The position numbers were made by a program, and so were the translations under genes. Below the pieces are notes generated by a model, which did not search any database, was not told where the DNA came from, and saw nothing but the letters and a program-made list of their open reading frames with translations. From IMG/VR virus record IMGVR_UViG_3300026533_000003, positions 37,772-101,771 of that record: DNA of 64,000 nucleotides, one strand, 5' to 3'. Positions 1,904 to 53,126 of this stretch are shown here, one piece after another. The first letter of the stretch is position 1; every line of letters begins with the position of its first letter. Origin of the DNA: a virus (taxonomy: Duplodnaviria > Heunggongvirae > Uroviricota > Caudoviricetes).

Positions 1904-3640
1904 CTAGCCTTCACAGGCCGAGCAAACTGATTTGTCAACTTTATGGACTGACTCTTCGTTTAAGCTATGGATGTAGTAGAGTGACTGGAGGTATGGATCC
2001 ATCAGTGCTATGTAGTGAAGTCTAGAGATTTCCTCTTCAGTTTCTTCTTTAGTTATGAAGATGTTAAGAGACTGGCCTTGGCCACCTCCTCCCTCATTCA
2101 TTAGCTTCTGACGGTGTGAGCCCATCATTATAATGGTCTCCTGGTTTAGCTCATAAGCAGTTCTGAAAACAGACTTCTCGTGATCTGATAACCAGTCCTC
2201 ACCTTGTACTGAGCCTTGAGACTCCGAGATACGTTTCATTACCTCTTCGTTGTACATTCCTCTTTCCTTCATGATAGGTAGAAGGATAGGGTTGATACGG
2301 AATACAGTACCACCAGCAGTGTCTTGGCCATAGACGTTAGCGTACACAGGGTTGATACCTTCTGATATACCGCCTTGGATAATGGCTGTTGACTTAGTGG
2401 GTGGGAATGCTAGACGATGGGAGTTACGAAGGCCATAGCCCTCCAACCACTTAGGTTCTCCTAGCTCTCTTGCCATTAGTTTAGTTGCTGCAAGTGATTC
2501 ACGGTCTAAGTGTTTTACTAGTAGCTGGTTAAACTGGATGGATTGAAAGTCTCCGAACTCCCACATCTTGCTTTGGAAGTAAGACGATTGGCCTAGTTGA
2601 CCTAGCCCTAAGGCTCTTGACTTCTCTGTGAATGCGATTATGCGTTCAAAGCCTTCTTCGTTATGAGCTTTCTCTAACATGTCTTCGATTACGGCGTCTA
2701 GGAACACTGTTGCAATTTGTACTGCGTAGGTGTCTTTCCATTCGTCGTATTTAAGTACATTCATAGATGATAGTACACAAGTGAATGAGTGGTCTTTATC
2801 TGACATTAAAGCTATCTCAGCACATAGGTTAGAGTGACGTACGTAGAAACCTCTATCTATATACATTTGAGATCTGGCGCTGTTTACTTTATCTAGAAAG
2901 AGTAAGTAGCCTTTACCTTTGATCATCTTAGCACGTAGCATACGTTTCCAGATGTAGTCAGCTCTAGCCGCATCTGTGCGAAATAGTGCCTTGAAGTCTT
3001 CAGTGATGTTCCATCCGATATTCCAACCGTCGTCGTCTGCCACGATTTGCTCTACAAGCTCATCGAAGTCAGGGTGAAGAACGTTTACGTATTGTCCTAC
3101 GTTACCACGGCGTGTGCCTTGGCTGATATCTTTCATATCTTGAACAATTCCTGCCGCGGGTTGCATAATACCGTTGGCTGTGCCACCACGCGATACCTTA
3201 GCACCACGATGACGTACGGGATCTAGGCACCATGAGGTACCGTATCCACGTTGAGTTAGTTGTGCTATCTCTGTGCGTGCTTGGTAGAATGATCTGATAG
3301 AGTCTCCTACATAGGTACCTGAACATGCGATAGGGTGGCCTCTACTGTTACCCATATTTGTCAATACAGGTGTAGAAGGTGATAGCCAGCCTTTCCACAT
3401 TACGTCGAAGTAAGCTTCTTCCCAGTTGTTGTAGTCCATATAGGATGGGATATTAAACTTAGTTAGCTCTGCAGCTCTCTTAGCTATACGCGTGTACATG
3501 TCATAAGGTGTTTCTGCCGTGTTTAGGTACTCTTGTCCCTTTAGGAGCTGGTAGCTTGCTGTCGACATCCATTGAGGTGCAAGACCATCTGACTGGAGTT
3601 GCTTTCTCTCATGAGATAAACGTTCGTATTTATTGCTCAT
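1904..3640 (-). CDS. nrdA: ribonucleotide reductase large subunit (class Ia NrdA)
   Basis: 578 aa with the active-site 'SNLCAEI' (NxCxE) motif, a C-terminal Cys pair 'CSACEG' and the typical RNR alpha length. Confidence 0.9.
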   Translation of the reverse strand: MSNKYERLSHERKQLQSDGLAPQWMSTASYQLLKGQEYLNTAETPYDMYTRIAKRAAELTKFNIPSYMDYNNWEEAYFDVMWKGWLSPSTPVLTNMGNSRGHPIACSGTYVGDSIRSFYQARTEIAQLTQRGYGTSWCLDPVRHRGAKVSRGGTANGIMQPAAGIVQDMKDISQGTRRGNVGQYVNVLHPDFDELVEQIVADDDGWNIGWNITEDFKALFRTDAARADYIWKRMLRAKMIKGKGYLLFLDKVNSARSQMYIDRGFYVRHSNLCAEIALMSDKDHSFTCVLSSMNVLKYDEWKDTYAVQIATVFLDAVIEDMLEKAHNEEGFERIIAFTEKSRALGLGQLGQSSYFQSKMWEFGDFQSIQFNQLLVKHLDRESLAATKLMARELGEPKWLEGYGLRNSHRLAFPPTKSTAIIQGGISEGINPVYANVYGQDTAGGTVFRINPILLPIMKERGMYNEEVMKRISESQGSVQGEDWLSDHEKSVFRTAYELNQETIIMMGSHRQKLMNEGGGGQGQSLNIFITKEETEEEISRLHYIALMDPYLQSLYYIHSLNEESVHKVDKSVCSACEG

Positions 3641-4664
3641 CTGAGTCTCCTTTGATGTATGGTAGTAGGCTGAATGAATCTAACTTCCACGTTCTGCTGT
3701 ACTGGTTAGTACCACCTGCAAAGAAGTCATGTATTTTGATAGCACCAGTTCCTTGGTAGAACCATGCTGATACAGTGTCGTCAGTGTCTTCTACATATAG
3801 ATCCTTTTGGCCCAGCAGGCCTAATGCTTCATTGGCTCTAGAGCGTATAAATGCTTTGAGGTTAATACCTTTGATGTCGTTGATAGCAACATCTCCAGGG
3901 AATATGTAGTCTATAACGTCATCCTCGTGGCGTATGATCTCTTTGAAGAGCTCTTGTATATCCTCATCTAGCTTAAGGCGATCGATGTTTCTAGGACCGC
4001 TAGAGTCCTCGTGAAGTACAGTTTTGAATAGGTACGCTGCGAAGTTGCCATGGATAGTTTCATCTTGCACAACAAAGTCTACACCTGTTATAGTGTTTTT
4101 GATTAAGTTGTTACCGTTAGACTGGAAGGACTTTAACATAGCAAAGTTACTGAATAGTAATACCTGCTCTATTGCCGCTACCGTAGCTAACGCCAAGGGC
4201 TTGTTACCTTCAAGGTTGGATGTGATCCTTGTCAGAAAAGCTAGTTTAGATTTAAGAACAGCTATAACTTCTTGGTTTCTAGCTATCTCTTCTGGTTCTA
4301 TATTTAACTCGTCTGACATTTTCTGATAGAAGAAAGCGTGTACAGATTTCTCCATACGTGCTATCTCTATACAGCAGCCGTCTACCTCTGAGTGTGGGTA
4401 CCATGATGATATCTTCTCCCACACTTCCCCGACTTTCTGCTCTATTTCTACAAATAGTTGAAGTGTTACAGTTACTAGGTTAAGCTGGTTAGCATCTAGT
4501 ACGTGGCGGTATTGGTGCACATCTTTATCTACTGGGATTTCTTTTGCAGTCCAGCTTACATCTTGCTGCATCTCCATAATGTCTTTAGCTTCAGGGTAGA
4601 AGTAGCGACCGAATAGCGGGTTCTCAGTTTCTATTGGTAGCTTATTTTGAGATATCTGTTTCAT
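3630..4664 (-). CDS. nrdB: ribonucleotide reductase small subunit (NrdB)
   Basis: 344 aa with ferritin-like diiron pattern (E..H pairs, 'FSNFAMLKSF'). It lies immediately upstream of nrdA and overlaps it by 11 nt. Confidence 0.85.
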   Translation of the reverse strand: MKQISQNKLPIETENPLFGRYFYPEAKDIMEMQQDVSWTAKEIPVDKDVHQYRHVLDANQLNLVTVTLQLFVEIEQKVGEVWEKISSWYPHSEVDGCCIEIARMEKSVHAFFYQKMSDELNIEPEEIARNQEVIAVLKSKLAFLTRITSNLEGNKPLALATVAAIEQVLLFSNFAMLKSFQSNGNNLIKNTITGVDFVVQDETIHGNFAAYLFKTVLHEDSSGPRNIDRLKLDEDIQELFKEIIRHEDDVIDYIFPGDVAINDIKGINLKAFIRSRANEALGLLGQKDLYVEDTDDTVSAWFYQGTGAIKIHDFFAGGTNQYSRTWKLDSFSLLPYIKGDSDEQ

Positions 4665-6783: not shown

Positions 6784-7467
6784 TTATATACTTCCATGGT
6801 TAGAATGAAAGTTGTGCTTAACCTCTGCTGCTTTTCTGGCAGCTATGGCGTCTGATTTATTAGAGAAGCTTCCTAGGTTAAGAGTCTTACCCTCTATACC
6901 TATTCTCGCTCTCCACTTATTTGTTTTAACATCCCATATAACACCATGAAACCCTGACTTGTTGCATTTGTACAGTTTCTTTGACTGCATATTGACAAGT
7001 TTAGTTACATCTCTTAAATTACTTAAGCTGTTATCTGATGGGTCGTGATTTTTATGATCTATAACGTTTGTAGGTAGAACTCCATACATATATAACCATG
7101 CAAGCCTTTGGGCCTGGTATCGCTTATAGCCGATAGATATTGTTATATACCCGTTATGTACTGTTCCAACAGTTTTGTTCGGGTACTTAATGTTTGTAAA
7201 TATACCTGTAGTAGGATTATACGTATACAGTTTCTTTAGATACTCCTGTGTTAAGTGTACTACTACTGTTCGTCCTCTTACTTTTGTGCATGTATTGCAT
7301 TTGCCTGATGACTTTAAAGCGGATGAAAACACCAGTACTTTAGGTGAATCACACTCGGTACATTTAAACAGGCCACACCTATCCACTTGTGGTGATGATT
7401 TTCTCTTTCTGCCTTCAACTTCTTTTATAAATATAAGGTTAAAGTCAGATTGTGTATATATTCTCAT
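6784..7467 (-). CDS. HNH homing endonuclease with AP2 DNA-binding domain
   Basis: HNH motif 'IDHKNHDPSDNSLSNLR' and AP2 domain 'GFHGVIWDVKTNKWRARIGIEGKTLNLGSFSNKSDAIAARKAAEVKHNF'. Confidence 0.8.
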   Translation of the reverse strand: MRIYTQSDFNLIFIKEVEGRKRKSSPQVDRCGLFKCTECDSPKVLVFSSALKSSGKCNTCTKVRGRTVVVHLTQEYLKKLYTYNPTTGIFTNIKYPNKTVGTVHNGYITISIGYKRYQAQRLAWLYMYGVLPTNVIDHKNHDPSDNSLSNLRDVTKLVNMQSKKLYKCNKSGFHGVIWDVKTNKWRARIGIEGKTLNLGSFSNKSDAIAARKAAEVKHNFHSNHGSI

Positions 7468-15371: not shown

Positions 15372-16166
15372 TTAGTGACAGTCTTGCCAGCTGTTACCTA
15401 CTAGGACTTCTCCAGTGTAGGTACACTTCATTCCCAAGTAGTCAGAGACTTTCTTATAGGTGGATTGAAGGGTGTCGGCTAAGACTTGTTGGTGTTTGAT
15501 TTTTATTATTAGATCCACTTCGTCGTAGATACATGCTTGTTGGATGTAGTCTTTGCCGTGAGGGAATCCTCTACGGGCCATTTCTTCTTGGTAGAATACT
15601 AGGTAGTGCTTCATTGCTTCAGCACCCATTCCTTGGAGTTGGGAGTTAAGGGTAGCATGAGCGTGACGTACAGGTACCCTGCGGCCTCCAAACATCGTTA
15701 CGTACCCGTTTGCCTTGCCTTCCTTAGAGATGTCCGTGATGAGCTCCTTAAGGCCTTCTGTTGAGGAGATTAGGTCTGCTTGTACTTTGGCACCAAATAG
15801 TGCTTGGCGTATTAGGTGGTCTGTGAATGGTACTAGGGCGTCTTTCTTGATGGGGTAGAACTCTTTGCCATCCATTTTTGTTACACGACGGTAAAGCTTC
15901 TTCTTCATTGCGTCGAATTGCTTGCCTGTGTAGTCTGTAAACGGTTTATTACCGAGGAGAGTGTATCCTGTAAGAGTTGGTGAAGAGCCGTAGAGGAACC
16001 CAAACCAGAGCGGTTTTGCATCCCCTCTAGAGATTCCACAAGCTTTGGCGTTAAGGGAGTGAAGGTCTGTCCCGTTAGCTTTGCTGCCAGATGCGATAAT
16101 GTCGTTAAGTCTTCCACCATCATAGGGGTAGAGCATTTCGGCGAGGTTAACGTTTTCTTGTCCAGT
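15372..16166 (-). CDS. DNA polymerase (family A, T7-like) polymerase domain, 3' exon / C-terminal segment
   Basis: Motif B 'RGDAKPLWFGFLYG' and motif C 'ACIYDEVDL'. The in-frame stop-free extension upstream of the tracked ATG encodes 'TGQENVNLAEML', which aligns to T7 'ASGLELRCLAHFM' (motif A helix). Confidence 0.8.
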   Translation of the reverse strand, partial: TGQENVNLAEMLYPYDGGRLNDIIASGSKANGTDLHSLNAKACGISRGDAKPLWFGFLYGSSPTLTGYTLLGNKPFTDYTGKQFDAMKKKLYRRVTKMDGKEFYPIKKDALVPFTDHLIRQALFGAKVQADLISSTEGLKELITDISKEGKANGYVTMFGGRRVPVRHAHATLNSQLQGMGAEAMKHYLVFYQEEMARRGFPHGKDYIQQACIYDEVDLIIKIKHQQVLADTLQSTYKKVSDYLGMKCTYTGEVLVGNSWQDCH

Positions 16167-17042
16167 CAGGAGAAGTCAGTACCGACAAAGACCCATTGTT
16201 CTTTGGTAGTATGACTTCTTAAATCCTCCTTGATTGTACTAGATAAAAGAGGGTTAGCTAGTAATTGGTTGTATTCTTGTTCTGTGAGTTTCATGTAGTT
16301 CCTTTACTCGTTTGATTACCTGGGCTGTACAGTCTTTTGTTCGTAGCTCTGTATCACCTCCGTGGGTAAGTACAGCAGGGCCTTTATATAGTAGGTCCTT
16401 AGTATCTTGCAATAGTAGACGCTCCAGGTCGAAAGCGTCTTCACCATGTAGGCAGTGCACTTCTAGCAGTATTGCTATTGTGTTGCCATCTTTAGTATCT
16501 TTGGCGTACCTTTCCCTTACCGTCTTCTTAGTTATGCCTATTTTGAACAGCGAATTATTTACTAGTACTAGGTAAAGTATTGCGGGTGCTCCCACGTACT
16601 TAGTGCGGCCCCATCCTTTTTTAGTGTTAGCACACTCAGGACATCCCTTACCTCGTAAGTGATTGTTAGGGGATATTAGGAAGTCACCATGAGATTTACA
16701 GGTCACTTTAGACTTTTCACAGGACTTGGTGAAGACAGTAGATTCGTAGGTGTAGAGATTCATGTGTGTAGCGCTAGCACGCAGGATGTATTCCGCTTCA
16801 CTTGTAATAGGAGAGGGCTTGCATGTAGGGCAGTGCCCAGCTCTTAGATGATTCTTCGGAGTAGTGGTAAAGTCTCCGTGTGTTGGGCATGTGACTGTAA
16901 TCTCGTTACCCCTACCTGTGTAGTTAACCTTAGCGTACGTATACTCACCATTATGGAAATCCGTTGCTCTCTCTGCGAAGTTGTCTTTGTTTAATTTCAT
17001 ACAGTATTATACAGCCAGCATACTTAAAGCTTGCTTATACAG
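16167..17042 (-). mobile_element. intervening sequence (putative group I intron) in the DNA polymerase gene, carrying a homing-endonuclease ORF
   Basis: The polymerase sequence resumes in frame on the far side. The proposed 5' exon ends in U (…GAU AGU) and the insertion ends in G (…CUCCUG). Boundaries are inferred by alignment to T7 gp5, not verified. Confidence 0.45.
16254..17000 (-). CDS. homing endonuclease, GIY-YIG-like (T5orf172-type) with duplicated N-terminal Zn-finger modules
   Basis: Two repeats 'TCPTHGDF..NHLRAGHCPTC' and 'TCKSHGDF..NHLRGKGCPEC'. C-terminal 'AILYLVLVNNSLFKIGITKKTVRERY' fits the GIY..YIG pattern. It sits exactly between the two polymerase segments. Confidence 0.6.
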   Translation of the reverse strand: MKLNKDNFAERATDFHNGEYTYAKVNYTGRGNEITVTCPTHGDFTTTPKNHLRAGHCPTCKPSPITSEAEYILRASATHMNLYTYESTVFTKSCEKSKVTCKSHGDFLISPNNHLRGKGCPECANTKKGWGRTKYVGAPAILYLVLVNNSLFKIGITKKTVRERYAKDTKDGNTIAILLEVHCLHGEDAFDLERLLLQDTKDLLYKGPAVLTHGGDTELRTKDCTAQVIKRVKELHETHRTRIQPITS

Positions 17043-17570
17043 ACTATCTGGGACGTAGTAGTAACAGGGAGCTGAGAATAGTTCTCTAAACTCTTTTTGG
17101 GCTGGTATTTGTGCAAGGTTTGGGCTTGAGCTTGTAAATCTTCCTGTAACTGTACCGCACGTATCAACTCTTCCGTGGATACACCTGGTAGCTTCATTGT
17201 AGTGGTTGATAAGTGATCCATCTGCCCCTCCTATTTGGGATTGGTCTTTGGTTACTTTTAGGTATCGCCTAAGCATCTGACCTGAGGGATGGGTCATATT
17301 CTCTAGAGAGTCTACATCTACCTTTACTCCTCCCTTTGGGGTGAAGTATGGGAATTGGTACCCTAGGTCGTGCTTCATCCATAGCTTTATATGAGCACGA
17401 GAACCAGGGTTGAAGGCTTCGTACTTAATGTTTTGGTAGGTACCTTCACGGTGTACCATTACTGTTCGCATTGGTTGGTCAAACCATTTGTAGTTGCTTG
17501 CTGCCGGCATACGGAACTTACCGTTTTTAAGTATCTTAGACCCCGGGATTGTGTAAGGCTTTAGTAGCAT
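17043..17570 (-). CDS. DNA polymerase (family A) polymerase domain, 5' exon / N-terminal segment
   Basis: 'KYEAFNPGSRAHIK' aligns to T7 'FNPSSRDHIQ'; 'GTVTGRFTSSSPNLAQIP' aligns to T7 'GAVTGRATHAFPNLAQIP'. The tracked ORF runs on to 17007 ('DSLYKQALSMLAV*'), which is interpreted as readthrough into the intron. Confidence 0.75.
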
Positions 17571-18822: not shown

Positions 18823-20319
18823 TTATACCATTAAGATATCAGTTGTGCCTTTCACTTTCATAGGGTTGTTCTCACAACATACGAAGAAGGTTGATAGGTT
18901 CCTTAGACGAGGGTGTTTAGCCCACTCTTGAGGAATGTCTGAGTAGTTATCAGAGTAAGATAGGAAGATAGTTTTGTTAAGGTCCTTAACGTTGTTATCT
19001 ATCCAGTCGAATACATCTGAGTGGCTAGTGCCTCCTACTACGAATCTAGTTGCTAAGGCTTCTTTGAATTGCTTGTTTTCTGCAATATCATAGTCACTTT
19101 CTAATACGAATTCCTTAACTATACGGGTATCGTGGATAAGCACTGTTAGTTTAGTTATCTGCTTAGATACATCTTCCATTAGGTATAGGAGACGCTGCAA
19201 GGCCTCTGTGGATACTGAGCCTGAGTGATCTACTGATAGTACTAGTTCTAGTTTGGTATCGAAGAATTGCTTCTTAGGTGCCTTATAGATACGACGGTAG
19301 GTATTGTTAAGGTTAGCCCAGTTTGTGCTGTAGTCGTGAGTCATGTAATAGACTTGGCGTTTGAATGAGGCCTTTATCTTCTTGAACCAACCTGTCTCTA
19401 CTTTTATAGATCCGAATAGGGAGTTCATAAGTTTCCCGGCTGTTGTGCCTTTAGTGTTTGTTTGGATTACATCTTGGATTGCTTCGGATAGGTCTGACAT
19501 TGCTGTGTCCAGGTCGTCTACTGAGGTGTCGGTTGCTTTAGTTTTAGCACTTTTACCTCCGTCTTCGTCAGTAGCGTCCCCCTCGTTACCACCGGGATTG
19601 GTTGGTTGAGTAGTTTCTTTACCGTCGAACTCTACTTTGGACATACAGTTAGATACTTGAGTAACTTTAGGTTGCTCGGCACCTTCTTTTAGTAGTTTAA
19701 GGATCTCTATATCGGATAGTTGGTCTTTATGGTATTGGGCATTATATAGGCCTATAGGCTCTATGGTACTCCAGTGAGACTTCAGCTGAGATGCCATAAA
19801 GAGATCTTTTATGCTGTAGTTGATTGCGTAGTCCTCTGCGATATTGACTACTTGGTGAGGGTCTTGTAGGCCATCAGCTATTCGTAACATCATAGTGTTG
19901 TAGCCGCTAGTTATATGCTTACGGATAATATGCTGTAGCTCATGCATATATACAAAGGCAAAGAATACACCATGCCGCTCCATGTGACGCGCTATAGTTT
20001 TTAGTTCGGTTTCATTATGGTATAGGAATTTAAAGTGTACCTCCACATGGTTACCCATCTCTACATACGCTCCAAAGTAGTTCATAAATGTTTTTAACTC
20101 TTTGTCTAGTTTTGGAAGTGGGGCGTTAGTTTGCTCAATTGTTACCTTTACTGGCAGCTTAAGGAATAGTCCTGTACTTAGACCAGCTGTCTTAGTCTTA
20201 CCTAGTAGCAGGTTAGTGTTCTTGGCAATTTCTTTATATACAAAGTCTTCTGCTGTTTTTATAAATTCTGGTATTGTCATATTGGTTCCTTTAATAATTT
20301 GGTAGTGTAGTCTTTTCAA
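18823..20319 (-). CDS. vWA-domain protein with HExxH metallopeptidase-like motif (partner of the MoxR-like ATPase; CobT/ViaA-like)
   Basis: C-terminal MIDAS motif 'LVLSVDHSGSV' (DxSxS); 'MHELQH' zincin-like motif; acidic low-complexity linker; 498 aa. Confidence 0.65.
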   Translation of the reverse strand: MKRLHYQIIKGTNMTIPEFIKTAEDFVYKEIAKNTNLLLGKTKTAGLSTGLFLKLPVKVTIEQTNAPLPKLDKELKTFMNYFGAYVEMGNHVEVHFKFLYHNETELKTIARHMERHGVFFAFVYMHELQHIIRKHITSGYNTMMLRIADGLQDPHQVVNIAEDYAINYSIKDLFMASQLKSHWSTIEPIGLYNAQYHKDQLSDIEILKLLKEGAEQPKVTQVSNCMSKVEFDGKETTQPTNPGGNEGDATDEDGGKSAKTKATDTSVDDLDTAMSDLSEAIQDVIQTNTKGTTAGKLMNSLFGSIKVETGWFKKIKASFKRQVYYMTHDYSTNWANLNNTYRRIYKAPKKQFFDTKLELVLSVDHSGSVSTEALQRLLYLMEDVSKQITKLTVLIHDTRIVKEFVLESDYDIAENKQFKEALATRFVVGGTSHSDVFDWIDNNVKDLNKTIFLSYSDNYSDIPQEWAKHPRLRNLSTFFVCCENNPMKVKGTTDILMV

Positions 20320-21803: not shown

Positions 21804-22802
21804 TTAGTGAATATACTCTGATGCTATTTCGAATAGCTTTGCATGCTCTTTGAAGCTTAGCGTTCCTAATAGTTCTTTATCTTCTTTCTTGAGCTTCTTA
21901 AGCATTTCTGCTGGTGGTTCTTTATCTACCATTTGTAGTAGGATTGCTTCTAGTCCTACAGAGATTGGCTTACCTTTTTCGTAGTTTAGGAATGCTGTGA
22001 ACATTTCTCCCACAATAAAGCCTATGAAGTTAGATGAGCTAATGTTATTATCGATTAACTGCATTACGTACTTAGCATCGTCGATAGTCTCAACGTAGTT
22101 AATAATGTAGGCATAGAGGATTTGGTCTAATGGCTTAAGGTTGGCAATATCCATCTGCTTCTTAGCAGCTACTATACTTGTAAAGTCAATAGCCTCTATG
22201 TAGGCGATATGTTTAGATAGTTCTGCTGCTGCTGCTTTAGATACCTTTTGTTTAGCTAGGAGAGTTGTATTTTCTTGCAAGAAACTACGGTCGTATAGTT
22301 CGAACTCATTTGCTAAGTGAGTCCAAGAGCGTGGAGTACCGAATTGTTCTATTTCAGTGGACTCGTCTTCTTGGCAATACGATGCATGTGTTCGTAAGAA
22401 TGAGCTGATGTAGAAGTGTAGTTGCTTACCGAAGTTCTCAAACCAGTAGTCGAAGTCGAAGTTTACTGGTAACATACCCATGCGGTCTTTAATTGGGGAA
22501 TCTACTCCTGAGAACCCTGCTTCTTCTGAGTCGTTCATTGCACCCATAATGGCTACTTTCTCGTGTAGACGAAATGAGCCTAGTTTACGTTCTCCTAAGA
22601 GCCCGTAGAGGTAGGGAGCTACTGCCATGTTTACACGGTGAAGATCGTCGATGAATAGGATACAACCATTCTTGCCCTCTTCAATTGCAATACGGTTAGC
22701 TGTTTCTATGATTTGAGGTACTGACCATTTAGTAGCCATTGAGTTAACTGTGCCTGTGACTGAGTACTGGTCCATGTGGTGTGCAGGGATGAAGTCTGGA
22801 AT
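21804..22802 (-). CDS. MoxR/CobS-like AAA+ ATPase, 3' exon (Walker B to C-terminus)
   Basis: 'GCILFIDDLHRVNMAVAPYLYGLLGERKLG' is the MoxR-type Walker B / sensor region; Walker A is absent from this ORF. The in-frame stop-free upstream extension 'IPDFIPAHH' runs back to 22802. Confidence 0.7.
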   Translation of the reverse strand: MPDFIPAHHMDQYSVTGTVNSMATKWSVPQIIETANRIAIEEGKNGCILFIDDLHRVNMAVAPYLYGLLGERKLGSFRLHEKVAIMGAMNDSEEAGFSGVDSPIKDRMGMLPVNFDFDYWFENFGKQLHFYISSFLRTHASYCQEDESTEIEQFGTPRSWTHLANEFELYDRSFLQENTTLLAKQKVSKAAAAELSKHIAYIEAIDFTSIVAAKKQMDIANLKPLDQILYAYIINYVETIDDAKYVMQLIDNNISSSNFIGFIVGEMFTAFLNYEKGKPISVGLEAILLQMVDKEPPAEMLKKLKKEDKELLGTLSFKEHAKLFEIASEYIH

Positions 22803-23888
22803 CGCTTATATTCAGTAGTTATCGTTAGTAACTACCCGCACCATTACGTGCTGCTACACCTCTCGGTGTAGGCTAGACTATATCTTCATCTTTATGTCTT
22901 AACTTTCTTGAACAGGGGAGGCAATATTGAATTGCACCTTCTGCTGATCTAACCATCGTTTGTGTCCACGGACTACTTATTTCGTTAGAACAATTATTAC
23001 AGGTGTATACGCCGAACCACTTGAATTTAAGCTTGTCGCCTATTAGTAGCTGTTTGTATTGCACACCTATTATTGTTCTTCCCCCGATATCTTCGCCGAT
23101 GTGCGTCATGTACTGCTCGAACATATTAGCCTGAACTGTGTGAGTTTTAGTCTTTGCAGACTGAGCTCTTACATTTAGATTCTGGTTATCTGCCGAGTGT
23201 TGCATGTTCTCTGCGTGTGTTACCCATTCTAGATTCTCTACAGTATTATTAGTACCGTCTTTATCTTTGTGGTTAACAAATGGCTTGTTATTAGGGTTAG
23301 GAATAAATGCTTCTGCCACTAGTCTATGCATGTGTACTGTATAATTATTGCCGTTATTAGATAACGAAGCTTTAACGTAAGTTGTATGCATTTGCTTGTG
23401 GTAGCTGCCTGAGCGTACCTTAGTACCGCTCTTAGTCGTGATACGTAAGTTGCCTTTGTCTGATACCTCGTAACGAGTACCGTACTTAGGACTTACTGGT
23501 TTGAATGTTTCTTGATTTTCCATTATACTTCCTTAAATTAGATAAGTAAGTATACCGAAAAATTTCTTAAAGTTAAATAAAGATGTCCCCCATTTCCACT
23601 CACTTGAGTGTACGAGCACAATGCTCTAGTCGTTGAACCTTCTCCTGCACGGAGCTTGGCTGCTGATTGCCTCTATCATTTACTTTTCTAACCGTCAACA
23701 TCTGCTTTCGCGATGCTTGTGGTGTAAATGCTTAACAAGGGTTCCCAGCAATTAAAGGGATGCTAACTACGTATCACTACGTAGAAGGGCTGTAACGTTC
23801 AGCTATTTAGTCTTATCAATAACACTACTATCATTTGTTTATTCTCATCATAGTGTTTTAGGGATACTGTTAATAGCTCACGTCGTTA
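22803..23888 (-). mobile_element. putative group I intron (~1.09 kb) interrupting the MoxR-like ATPase gene, carrying an HNH homing endonuclease
   Basis: The 5' exon ends …GGU|UAA and the 3' end is …AAGCG|AUU. A ~360-nt ORF-free, GC-richer structured segment (23524-23885) lies upstream of the HEG. A GNRA-capped hairpin 'CCUACACC GAGA GGUGUAGC' lies downstream of the HEG. Confidence 0.5.
22873..23523 (-). CDS. HNH homing endonuclease (intron-encoded)
   Basis: 'VNHKDKDGTNNTVENLEWVTHAENMQHS' HNH motif; C-terminal Cys cluster 'CNNCSNE...CLPCSRK'. Confidence 0.75.
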   Translation of the reverse strand: MENQETFKPVSPKYGTRYEVSDKGNLRITTKSGTKVRSGSYHKQMHTTYVKASLSNNGNNYTVHMHRLVAEAFIPNPNNKPFVNHKDKDGTNNTVENLEWVTHAENMQHSADNQNLNVRAQSAKTKTHTVQANMFEQYMTHIGEDIGGRTIIGVQYKQLLIGDKLKFKWFGVYTCNNCSNEISSPWTQTMVRSAEGAIQYCLPCSRKLRHKDEDIV

Positions 23889-24086
23889 ACCAGAAAGTTC
23901 TTCCGTACTTACTTCCGGGATCGATACTTGCACAACACCCATGTTTAAGTCTTTCGCTATCTTATATAGAGTTTGTGTTTTCCCGATACCAGGTTTACCA
24001 GCGATAGTTATACCTCCTCCGATGTCTGCTCCAGAAAGTTGGCCCTCGATGTTGGTGCGTAAAATTTTTATTATTGTGTTGTTCAT
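23886..24086 (-). CDS. MoxR/CobS-like AAA+ ATPase, 5' exon (Walker A)
   Basis: 'IAGKPGIGKTQTLYKIAKDL' is a Walker A P-loop. 66 aa ending at a stop, then the intron-like sequence. Overlaps the upstream gene by 4 nt. Confidence 0.7.
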   Translation of the reverse strand: MNNTIIKILRTNIEGQLSGADIGGGITIAGKPGIGKTQTLYKIAKDLNMGVVQVSIPEVSTEELSG

Positions 24087-52631: not shown

Positions 52632-53126
52632 TTTAAGGTTATTACGAACTACTCTAAGGTTAATATAATAGTGACAACTTATGCCAGATACAGTACACTT
52701 AAGGTTTAATTAATAGTACCTCACTATAATTACACCACTCCTAAGCAAGAGACCAAAGGCACAGAGGGTAGACTCTATAACCTACAATGATACCTCCCTA
52801 GGTTGTAACTAAGGGCGAGGGACTAGGCAATCTTAGTCAGGTACTTACAGAGGTCAATCAAGTCACCCGCGTAGCAAAGACTTGATACTAATAGGAGCTA
52901 CCAGGCTCCACTTCATATTGAGGTATAGCACAATGGCAGTGCAACTGGTTTTGGTCCAGTTTACGGGGGGATCGTTACCTCCTACCTCATCCACACATCA
53001 GCATTAACTCCAACATATTTGTATTAACTACCCTAAAACCTACATAACTACAACTATACCTTATTTATTAAACTACACTTAAGCCAACTATAGCTATCAT
53101 GCGTTAAATTTTAAAGGATGTAACTA

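Follow-up and report, generated by a model that had tools for sequence, protein, structure and literature searches.

The split gene described here lies in a 64-kb stretch of IMG/VR record IMGVR_UViG_3300026533_000003 (hereinafter, the window), which belongs to an uncultured phage of ~100 kb. The gene encodes an AAA+ ATPase, and its two parts are separated by a segment carrying an HNH endonuclease open reading frame (ORF). All features of this locus are on the minus strand, and the allele present in the window is called W. The upstream part (exon 1; 23889..24086) consists of 66 codons, includes the Walker A motif GKPGIGKT, and ends with the bases GGU, which are directly followed by an in-frame stop codon, so that a 66-amino-acid (aa) ORF with a TAA stop is seen at 24086..23886. 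The downstream part (exon 2; 21804..22802) comprises 332 codons and a stop codon and encodes the Walker B motif ILFIDD, the sensor region, and an alpha-helical C-terminal domain. Within it lies a 323-aa ORF (22775..21804), whose frame is open upstream to 22802. Between the two parts is the 216-aa HNH ORF (22873..23523), with ORF-free flanks on either side. A first-pass annotation of the window had described all of these features and had interpreted them as a group I intron of ~1.1 kb with an HNH ORF in a peripheral loop, whose removal would make the transcript 1.09 kb shorter. Our analyses bear this out, identify the loop as that of helix P8 on the basis of an Rfam match and a covarying structure, and set the size at 1,086 nucleotides (nt) (22803..23888, starting with UAAC and ending with a terminal G at 22803). 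We consider it very likely that the locus represents a mobile group I intron of subgroup IA inside an N4 gp24-like AAA+ ATPase gene.

A scan of the whole window against Rfam at the gathering thresholds returned three matches, namely, two tRNAs and the group I intron family RF00028 (Intron_gpI). The latter match (23810..23480) scored 57.6 bits, above the gathering score of 50 (E = 5.5e-12 for the 64-kb window). Two ORF-less sibling introns located at the same site in other phages scored 91.2 and 93.5 bits against RF00028 and covered model positions 1 to 253. The fold check against Intron_gpI that had been recommended in the first-pass annotation thus detected a group I core, and helices P1 to P9.2 were recovered. 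For a test of the structure, the loop ORFs were removed from ten homologous introns, their cores were aligned, the full secondary structure was written on W, and the base pairs were counted; alignments in which the 3' partner was slid by 1 to 3 columns and 500 shuffles served as controls. The structure contains 115 pairs in 22 helices, with 90.7% of the cells across the ten introns holding standard pairs, compared with 31 to 42% in the slid controls. Both sides had changed in 73 of the 115 pairs, and the covariation score was 0.535 (0.04 to 0.12 in the slid controls); none of the 500 shuffles reached any of the observed measures. The compensatory changes in 73 pairs therefore point to selection for a ribozyme fold. 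The helices include a long-range P1, P1.1, P1.2, P2, P3, P4, P5/5a/5b/5c, P6, P7, P7.1, P7.2, P8, P9, P9.1, and P9.2. P3 and P7, which form a pseudoknot, are 100% paired (with two pairs changed on both sides) and 98% paired, respectively, and the corresponding values are 95% for P4 and 100% and 92.5% for P6.

The 3' strand of P1 (23788..23796) contains the internal guide GCC (23790..23788), which pairs with the exon bases GGU and places a U.G wobble at the 5' splice site, as well as GUUA (23796..23793), which pairs with intron bases 1 to 4; the CA between them is unpaired. The U.G, G-C, and G-C pairs are kept in 10 of 10 introns, and the UAAC/GUUA pairing is replaced by UGAG/UUCA in L007. RNAalifold applied to the first 110 nt alone recovered the same long-range P1, with exon GGU plus UAAC opposite GUUA-CA-GCC ~95 nt downstream, and also predicted an extension of P1, with 18 of 28 pairs covarying. 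This extension in loop L1 (23801..23878) is composed of P1.1 (23878..23872/23807..23801) and P1.2 (23855..23851/23827..23823), both of which covary, and carries at its tip an almost invariant 23-nt apical element, UGAUGAGAAUAAACAAAUGAUAG (23850..23828). The P2 hairpin (CUACGUA-GUGA-UACGUAG; 23767..23784), capped by a GNRA loop, shows both-side changes in all seven of its pairs.

The 5' part of the catalytic core (23586..23760), delimited by the Rfam alignment and the pair counts, contains the 5' strand of P3 (23760..23755), P4, P5-P5a-P5b with a GAAA loop, P6 (23660..23637), the junction J6/7, the 5' strand of P7 (23631..23627), P7.1 (23626..23614), P7.2 (23610..23597), and the 3' strand of P3 (23591..23586). 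The 5' strand of P8, CAUCUUUAUUUAACUUU (23569..23585), pairs with 22906..22887 across the ORF, and its six proximal pairs are 98% paired, four of them covarying. The 3' strand of P8 is followed by J8/7 (AAGAUA; 22886..22881) and the 3' strand of P7 (UAGUC; 22880..22876), a region that matches the Rfam consensus gAAGAUAUAGUC, which is complete in the alignments of L001 and L009. In the 3' domain (22803..22875), J7/9 with the P9.0 bases GC (22873..22872) precedes P9 (CUACACC-GAGA-GGUGUAG; 22871..22854), which is the GNRA-capped hairpin that had been noticed at first pass, and P9 is followed by P9.1 (22851..22838), P9.2 (22835..22815; invariant UAACG in a YUAACGM loop), AAUAUAAGC, and the terminal G. 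The helices of the P9, P9.1, and P9.2 region (helices 20 to 22) covary. The terminal G is present in 10 of 10 introns, and P9.0 reads GC/GC in five of them and GU/AC in the other five; this perfect two-state covariation fixes the 3' splice site. P7.1 (GAGCA-UUG-UGCUC) is 93% paired with three covarying pairs, and P7.2 is 94% paired with four. Such extra helices between P7 and the 3' strand of P3 define subgroup IA (PMC3984707), and we therefore assigned the intron to this subgroup. It appears to be of the phage "IA2-like" type.

Joining GGU (23889) to AUU (22802) gives the predicted RNA junction ...CUUUCUGGU-AUUCCAGAC... and a 398-aa protein (...STEELSG-IPDFIP...). The boundary cannot slide, since the intron begins with U and exon 2 with A, and only this join yields Gly-Ile. 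The splice sites GGU|UAAC ... AAGCG|AUU are exactly those proposed in the first-pass annotation, and the in-frame join EELSG-IPDF that it predicted agrees with uninterrupted homologs, in which STEELSG-IPDFI is colinear without a gap at the join. A protein search returned ~45 such homologs (395 to 399 aa; 63 to 75% identity at ~97 to 100% coverage), together with a second group of ~323-aa proteins. The spliced protein shows a single Pfam AAA_5 match that crosses the junction (residues 28 to 174; 34 bits against a cut-off of 22), and the generic AAA family matches at 33 bits. An AlphaFold model of the joined protein (predicted local distance difference test score of 80 and predicted template modeling [TM] score of 0.75) places the junction in a short loop at residues 66 to 68, just before a beta-hairpin. 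The ATG at 22775 corresponds to an internal methionine rather than a start codon: the HMD motif that contains it is conserved in the uninterrupted homologs, and inspection of the window sequence upstream of this ATG revealed no Shine-Dalgarno sequence.

The AAA+ assignment is secure. The narrower label "MoxR/CobS-type" given in the first-pass annotation is only loosely supported, by the AAA_5 match, the name of one homolog, and a von Willebrand factor A (VWA)-like neighbor. Profile and fold searches of the PDB placed RuvB, MCM, Lon, and FtsH first and NorQ only at rank 44, with TM scores of 0.25 to 0.31; as the fold search returned only generic AAA+ proteins, it was rejected as a route to a MoxR identity. 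One JGI homolog carries the name "MoxR-like ATPase." The nearest cultured relatives are N4 gp24-like ATPases, at ~22% identity, and the maximum identity to cultured phage proteins is ~25%. The segment just before the insertion (...S.E.LSG...) may resemble the "DLxG" motif of MoxR proteins. The VWA-like neighbor is a 498-aa ORF with a TTG start (20319..18823, minus strand) located ~1.5 kb downstream of the ATPase gene, with small ORFs in between. It matches DUF2201 at 27.9 bits (cut-off, 26.4), and its ortholog in L007 matches VWA_CoxE; its PHROG 1314 label, "HNH endonuclease," looks misleading.

Loci for comparison were collected from the contigs of truncated homologs and by scans of two collections, and they include ten distinct intron-bearing loci interrupted at the same codon. 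The introns of L002, L003, L133, L150, and L007 measure ~1.08 kb and, like the 1,086-nt intron of W, carry an HNH ORF in P8. Those of L001 (496 nt) and L009 (415 nt) have no endonuclease ORF. The L005 intron (1,733 nt; 2299-4031) contains two HNH_3 ORFs, located in the P6 loop (185 aa) and the P8 loop (222 aa), and the L168 intron (1,401 nt) has in P8 a DUF723/treble-clef/T5orf172-like ORF unrelated to the HNH gene. In the L001 intron, the body of the HNH ORF has been lost, but its ribosome-binding site and ATG, a few of its codons, and its 3' end are still present. More than 20 further loci are intron-less, among them L143, whose ATPase is 93% identical to that of W. In a neighbor-joining tree of the ATPases, intron-bearing and intron-less alleles are interleaved (W/L143, L003/L145, L002/L011, and L009 plus L005/L138 plus L139). 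The set as a whole is the picture that would be expected for cycles of endonuclease gain, decay, and loss.

A comparison of W with the intron-less L143 gave 0.05 nonsynonymous (dN) and 0.92 synonymous (dS) substitutions per site (dN/dS, ~0.05), and exon 1 alone gave a dN of 0.027 and a dS of 0.72; both pieces of the ATPase are therefore kept under strong purifying selection. All ten intron-bearing lineages keep the reading frame across the join. The 12 nt downstream of the insertion site (ATTCCAGACTTC) are identical in five of the seven intron-bearing alleles with the W-type junction (the main clade) and also occur in the intron-less L143 and L145, the uninterrupted site of L143 reading GAAGAGTTATCAGGT|ATTCCAGACTTCATCGAT. 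By this sequence match, L143 and L145 appear well suited as homing targets. In L005 and L009, which belong to the more divergent ATPase clade, the insertion lies one nucleotide further 3' in the codon frame (GGG U|UA CC versus GGU|AUU), still follows a GGU that pairs with the GCC guide, and restores Gly-Leu-Pro as in intron-less relatives, which points to a separate insertion or else to a shifted site. Synonymous divergence of the HNH ORF was also tried as a clock for recent transfer and was uninformative, being saturated for both the HNH ORF and the ATPase (proportion of synonymous differences [pS], 0.59 to 0.77).

The 216-aa protein matches Pfam HNH_3 at 37.4 bits (cut-off, 24.8; residues 64 to 108) and PHROG 59/959 HNH families (E = 6e-37 for PHROG 59); NUMOD4 scores 22.3 bits, just under its cut-off of 23.4, with 22.7 and 19.9 bits in sibling ORFs. 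Its only structurally solved relative is I-HmuI (1U3E; E = 1.1e-7), with which the catalytic HKD...NN...N stretch is aligned. Nonsynonymous differences among the sibling HNH ORFs are few relative to synonymous ones (proportion of nonsynonymous differences, 0.10 to 0.17, versus a pS of 0.59 to 0.77), and the endonuclease protein is therefore under purifying selection. The last codons of the ORF (GAU GAA GAU AUA GUC UAG; KDEDIV end) are at the same time the 3' strand of P8, J8/7, and the 3' strand of P7. At the other end, a hairpin (23516..23562) buries both the Shine-Dalgarno sequence AAGGAAG (23534..23528) and the AUG (23523). This 47-nt hairpin, which ends just after the AUG, has a folding energy of -12.9 kcal/mol (z = -4.84; none of 200 shuffles folds as well), and the same structure is predicted in L133 and in the ORF-less L001. 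Because the hairpin locks the ribosome-binding site and the AUG, translation of the endonuclease on the pre-mRNA is probably delayed or kept low, by analogy with I-TevI in phage T4. A sigma-70-like sequence, TTAACT-16-TATACT (23576..23549; 9 of 12 positions matching), overlaps the 5' arm of the hairpin, and the internal promoter that it may represent is retained as a hypothesis. GGTATACT was not enriched in the window (6 versus 4.3). A homing-site-like operator upstream of the HNH ORF was considered and rejected: the best local alignment scored 17, was equaled in 157 of 300 shuffles, and had no consistent match in the siblings.

Group I splicing chemistry is established for the class, and from the structure described above the following course can be proposed. 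The ATPase gene would be transcribed as one pre-mRNA, on which ribosomes translating exon 1 would stop at the UAA formed by the first three intron bases. The pre-mRNA would fold into the P1-P9.2 ribozyme, and an external guanosine bound at P7 would attack the phosphate that follows the U in the U.G wobble of P1 (GGU|UAAC). Exon 1, once released, would then attack after the terminal G, positioned by P9.0 and P7, and the ligated mRNA would encode the 398-aa ATPase. Translation of the endonuclease would run through the 3' strand of P8, J8/7, and the 3' strand of P7 and would unfold the core. During mixed infections, alleles lacking the intron would be nicked or cut by the endonuclease at GGT|ATTCCAGACTTC and would receive a copy of the intron through repair.

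Several points weigh against a splicing intron at this locus. All of the evidence comes from metagenomic DNA. The Rfam score of the window itself is only modestly above the threshold, as P8 is split by the ORF, into whose start the model forces false P8 and P9 helices. The pairing between the exon and the guide is short (3 to 4 bp), with the CA unpaired beside the U.G pair. There is no convincing P10, since AUUCCA has no complementarity to the bases 5' of the guide G (CA, GUUA); P10 is not universal among group I introns, and its absence is not disqualifying. The candidate internal promoter is no better than chance, with 7 such sites in the region versus 8.7 in shuffles. Lastly, several Bastillevirinae introns splice in vivo and not in vitro (PMC11878797), and strict self-splicing therefore cannot be assumed.

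The Bastillevirinae cases also favor a variant in which the element is a genuine group I intron that needs a protein of the phage or the host, or a folding cofactor, to splice in the cell, so that production of the ATPase is conditional. The intron belongs to a sublineage with a 105-nt insertion in L1, in which every helix around the apical sequence covaries, and this insertion with its conserved 23-nt loop, like the short exon-guide pairing, would fit such a dependence. On the other hand, all of the standard core elements and the peripheral helices of subgroup IA are present and covary, and nothing ties the L1 loop to a protein. Moreover, the ORF-less siblings L001 and L009 persist, and an intron-encoded maturase is therefore not required. 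We regard a cofactor-dependent intron as improbable, though a serious contender.

If the intron were instead a relic that no longer splices, the ATPase would be either a pseudogene or a pair of polypeptides of 66 aa and ~323 aa (the latter starting at ATG 22775) that assemble in trans. Gene callers do report separate ORFs (the 323-aa P0001 and 66-aa ORFs in sibling loci), and the DNA-only evidence and the near-threshold Rfam score of the window would also fit a relic. However, a relic is hard to reconcile with the strong purifying selection on both exons since the split from the intron-less allele, with the join frame kept in all ten lineages and the compensatory changes in the ribozyme, or with the nature of ATG 22775 as a conserved internal methionine without an upstream Shine-Dalgarno sequence, and we consider it very unlikely. 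A free-standing homing endonuclease inserted without any intron, as for mobE in Aeh1 nrdA or for the DNA_pol_A gene of the same window, which is split by an endonuclease-like ORF without a detectable ribozyme, can be practically dismissed even though HNH genes are common as free-standing phage cassettes (PMC2988022), since a complete ribozyme flanks the ORF and ORF-less insertions at the same site score 91 to 93 bits against Rfam.

The L1 apical element occurs once in the window and is present in all of the sibling ATPase introns. Its apparent specificity for ATPase introns held among 170 loci and was then refuted by introns of uncultured phages that carry the same element in rIIA and in primase-like genes (PHROG 2135). 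Loci at which the element was noted besides W include L177, L184, L188, L190, L192, L193, L195, L205, L187, and L283. The 5' junction of the primase-like and rIIA siblings is GGT|TAA(C/T) in five of the seven that could be read, the eighth sibling, L193, being left out of this count. The lineage sits, mostly after GGU, in at least three unrelated phage genes (AAA+ ATPase, primase-like, and rIIA). In a scan of the genome collections for the L1 motif, nearly all matches were attributable to chance in AT-rich genomes, and only one of the matches in genome contigs had group I core motifs nearby. The apical loop showed neither a k-turn nor a stable fold (minimum free energy of only -3.6 kcal/mol; z = -1.5), and no convincing fold was found for its C/D-box-like UGAUGA...UGA motif. 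It is conceivable, but doubtful, that the L1 loop is a protein-binding or tertiary docking module that makes splicing conditional and that, in addition, the lineage spreads by reverse splicing into GGU sites matching the fixed GCC guide as well as by endonuclease homing.

The P6-P7 core motif of the W intron was found in at least 120 IMG/VR contigs, none of which has the ATPase; the frames entering those introns match capsid, psbA, terminase, tail, DNA polymerase, and helicase genes and one AAA protein. No report of a gp24-like or MoxR-like ATPase gene with a group I intron was found in the literature, and a 2025 compilation of split phage genes contains no such ATPase, the nearest entry being "ATP_43b" in crAss-like phages. 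A near-identity DNA search among cultured phages returned nothing, and no isolate with this gene-intron pair was found. The remark in the first-pass annotation that an intron in such a gene appears unusual therefore holds for the gene family, for which we found no earlier report, and does not extend to the element, given that the same sublineage splits primase-like and rIIA genes. The host gene is new and, because related introns occupy many other phage genes, not very surprising; the insertion event is ordinary for this class of elements. Pairs of related group I introns only a few kilobases apart occur in several viral contigs (L190 and L192, both in IMGVR_UViG_3300045135_002242; L193; L025; L059; L063; and L099), and in one contig, one intron lies in rIIA and another in a primase-like gene.

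These results add the N4 gp24-like AAA+ ATPase to the phage genes colonized by group I introns and, together with the primase-like and rIIA siblings, support the view that the classical list of such genes (td, nrd, pol, and terL) reflects the phages that have been studied and not a biological limit. In the public copies that we found, the gene is called as unrelated 66-aa and 323-aa ORFs plus an HNH gene, and the ATPase is therefore systematically misannotated in these uncultured phages. The ten introns at one insertion site (ORF bearing, ORF deleted, ORF swapped, and double) form a compact natural record of the life cycle of homing endonucleases, and the short variants without an ORF (415 and 496 nt) lend themselves directly to ribozyme work. 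The main value of the locus is the correction of annotation and a well-populated comparative set for one insertion site.

Elsewhere in the window, a family A DNA polymerase gene is also split (15372..17570, minus strand), with ORFs at 17570..17007 and 16136..15372 corresponding to DNA_pol_A positions 21 to 148 and 243 to 381, respectively. Between them is a 248-aa treble-clef/DUF723/T5orf172-like ORF (17000..16254, minus strand), which shares 33% identity (E = 3e-39) with the ORF that the ATPase intron of L168 carries in its P8 loop. The possibility that this split (17570..15372) contains another group I intron was considered and rejected, as Rfam gave no signal even at E values up to 1; the split may represent a free-standing endonuclease insertion or a ribozyme beyond Rfam detection. 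A 227-aa ORF (6784..7467, minus strand; HNH_3, 50.8 bits) is not part of any detected intron and seems to encode an HNH endonuclease of the free-standing kind. The two tRNA genes detected by Rfam are located at 32309..32381 (minus strand) and 52919..52990 (plus strand), and other products encoded in the window are class I ribonucleotide reductase subunits, an RNA ligase, a PD-(D/E)XK nuclease, and an RNase H-like protein. By their predicted functions, these genes are consistent with the replication module of a large lytic phage.

Among known systems, the DNA polymerase introns of the Bacillus phages SPO1 and SP82, which encode I-HmuI and I-HmuII, resemble W in combining a phage subgroup IA intron, a gene of the replication module, and an HNH endonuclease. 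P8 is also the loop that holds the ORF in the SPO1 intron, and I-HmuI acts as a nicking enzyme. The W endonuclease and I-HmuI (1U3E) share the aligned (D/N)HKD...NN...N catalytic stretch, whereas in the C-terminal half of the W protein CxxC...CxxC zinc-ribbon-like motifs replace the DNA-binding tail of I-HmuI. The host genes also differ (DNA polymerase versus AAA+ ATPase), the introns have no DNA-level similarity, and the W lineage has an extended P1 with a conserved apical loop.

The introns of phage T4 are likewise of the IA type, with an exon 1 frame closed by a stop codon near the 5' splice site and the ribosome-binding site of the endonuclease placed in a hairpin. I-TevI and I-TevII are GIY-YIG enzymes, unlike the HNH enzyme of W, and the T4 intron ORFs lie in different loops. 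In T4, hairpins sequester the ribosome-binding sites of the endonucleases, the I-TevI ORF extends into the td core, and loss of the hairpin impairs splicing (PMC2988022). T4 has a proven late promoter within the hairpin, in contrast to the chance-level match in W, and for the T4 operator, which mimics the homing site, no significant equivalent was found in W.

The closest ribozyme in a cultured phage is found in the N4-like Pseudomonas phages of the genus Litunavirus (PAP02, YH6, and Pa_WF01), where it occupies the gene for the large subunit of RNA polymerase. It is 81 to 84% identical to the W intron over 105 to 165 nt of the P4-P7.2 core, the likeness being limited to this conserved core. 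These phages encode an ATPase of the gp24-like family, but the intron interrupts the RNA polymerase gene instead. In PAP02 (L172; MT080102.1, 71337-73345) and Pa_WF01 (L171), the gene is split by an ORF-bearing intron; the PAP02 record leaves the intron unannotated and gives the 3' exon only as a misc_feature, and one Litunavirus record annotates the intron as Intron_gpI. The primase-like and rIIA siblings differ from W in host gene and insertion site, and their flanking exons are unrelated to the ATPase, yet their introns share the L1 apical element and the core motifs with W.

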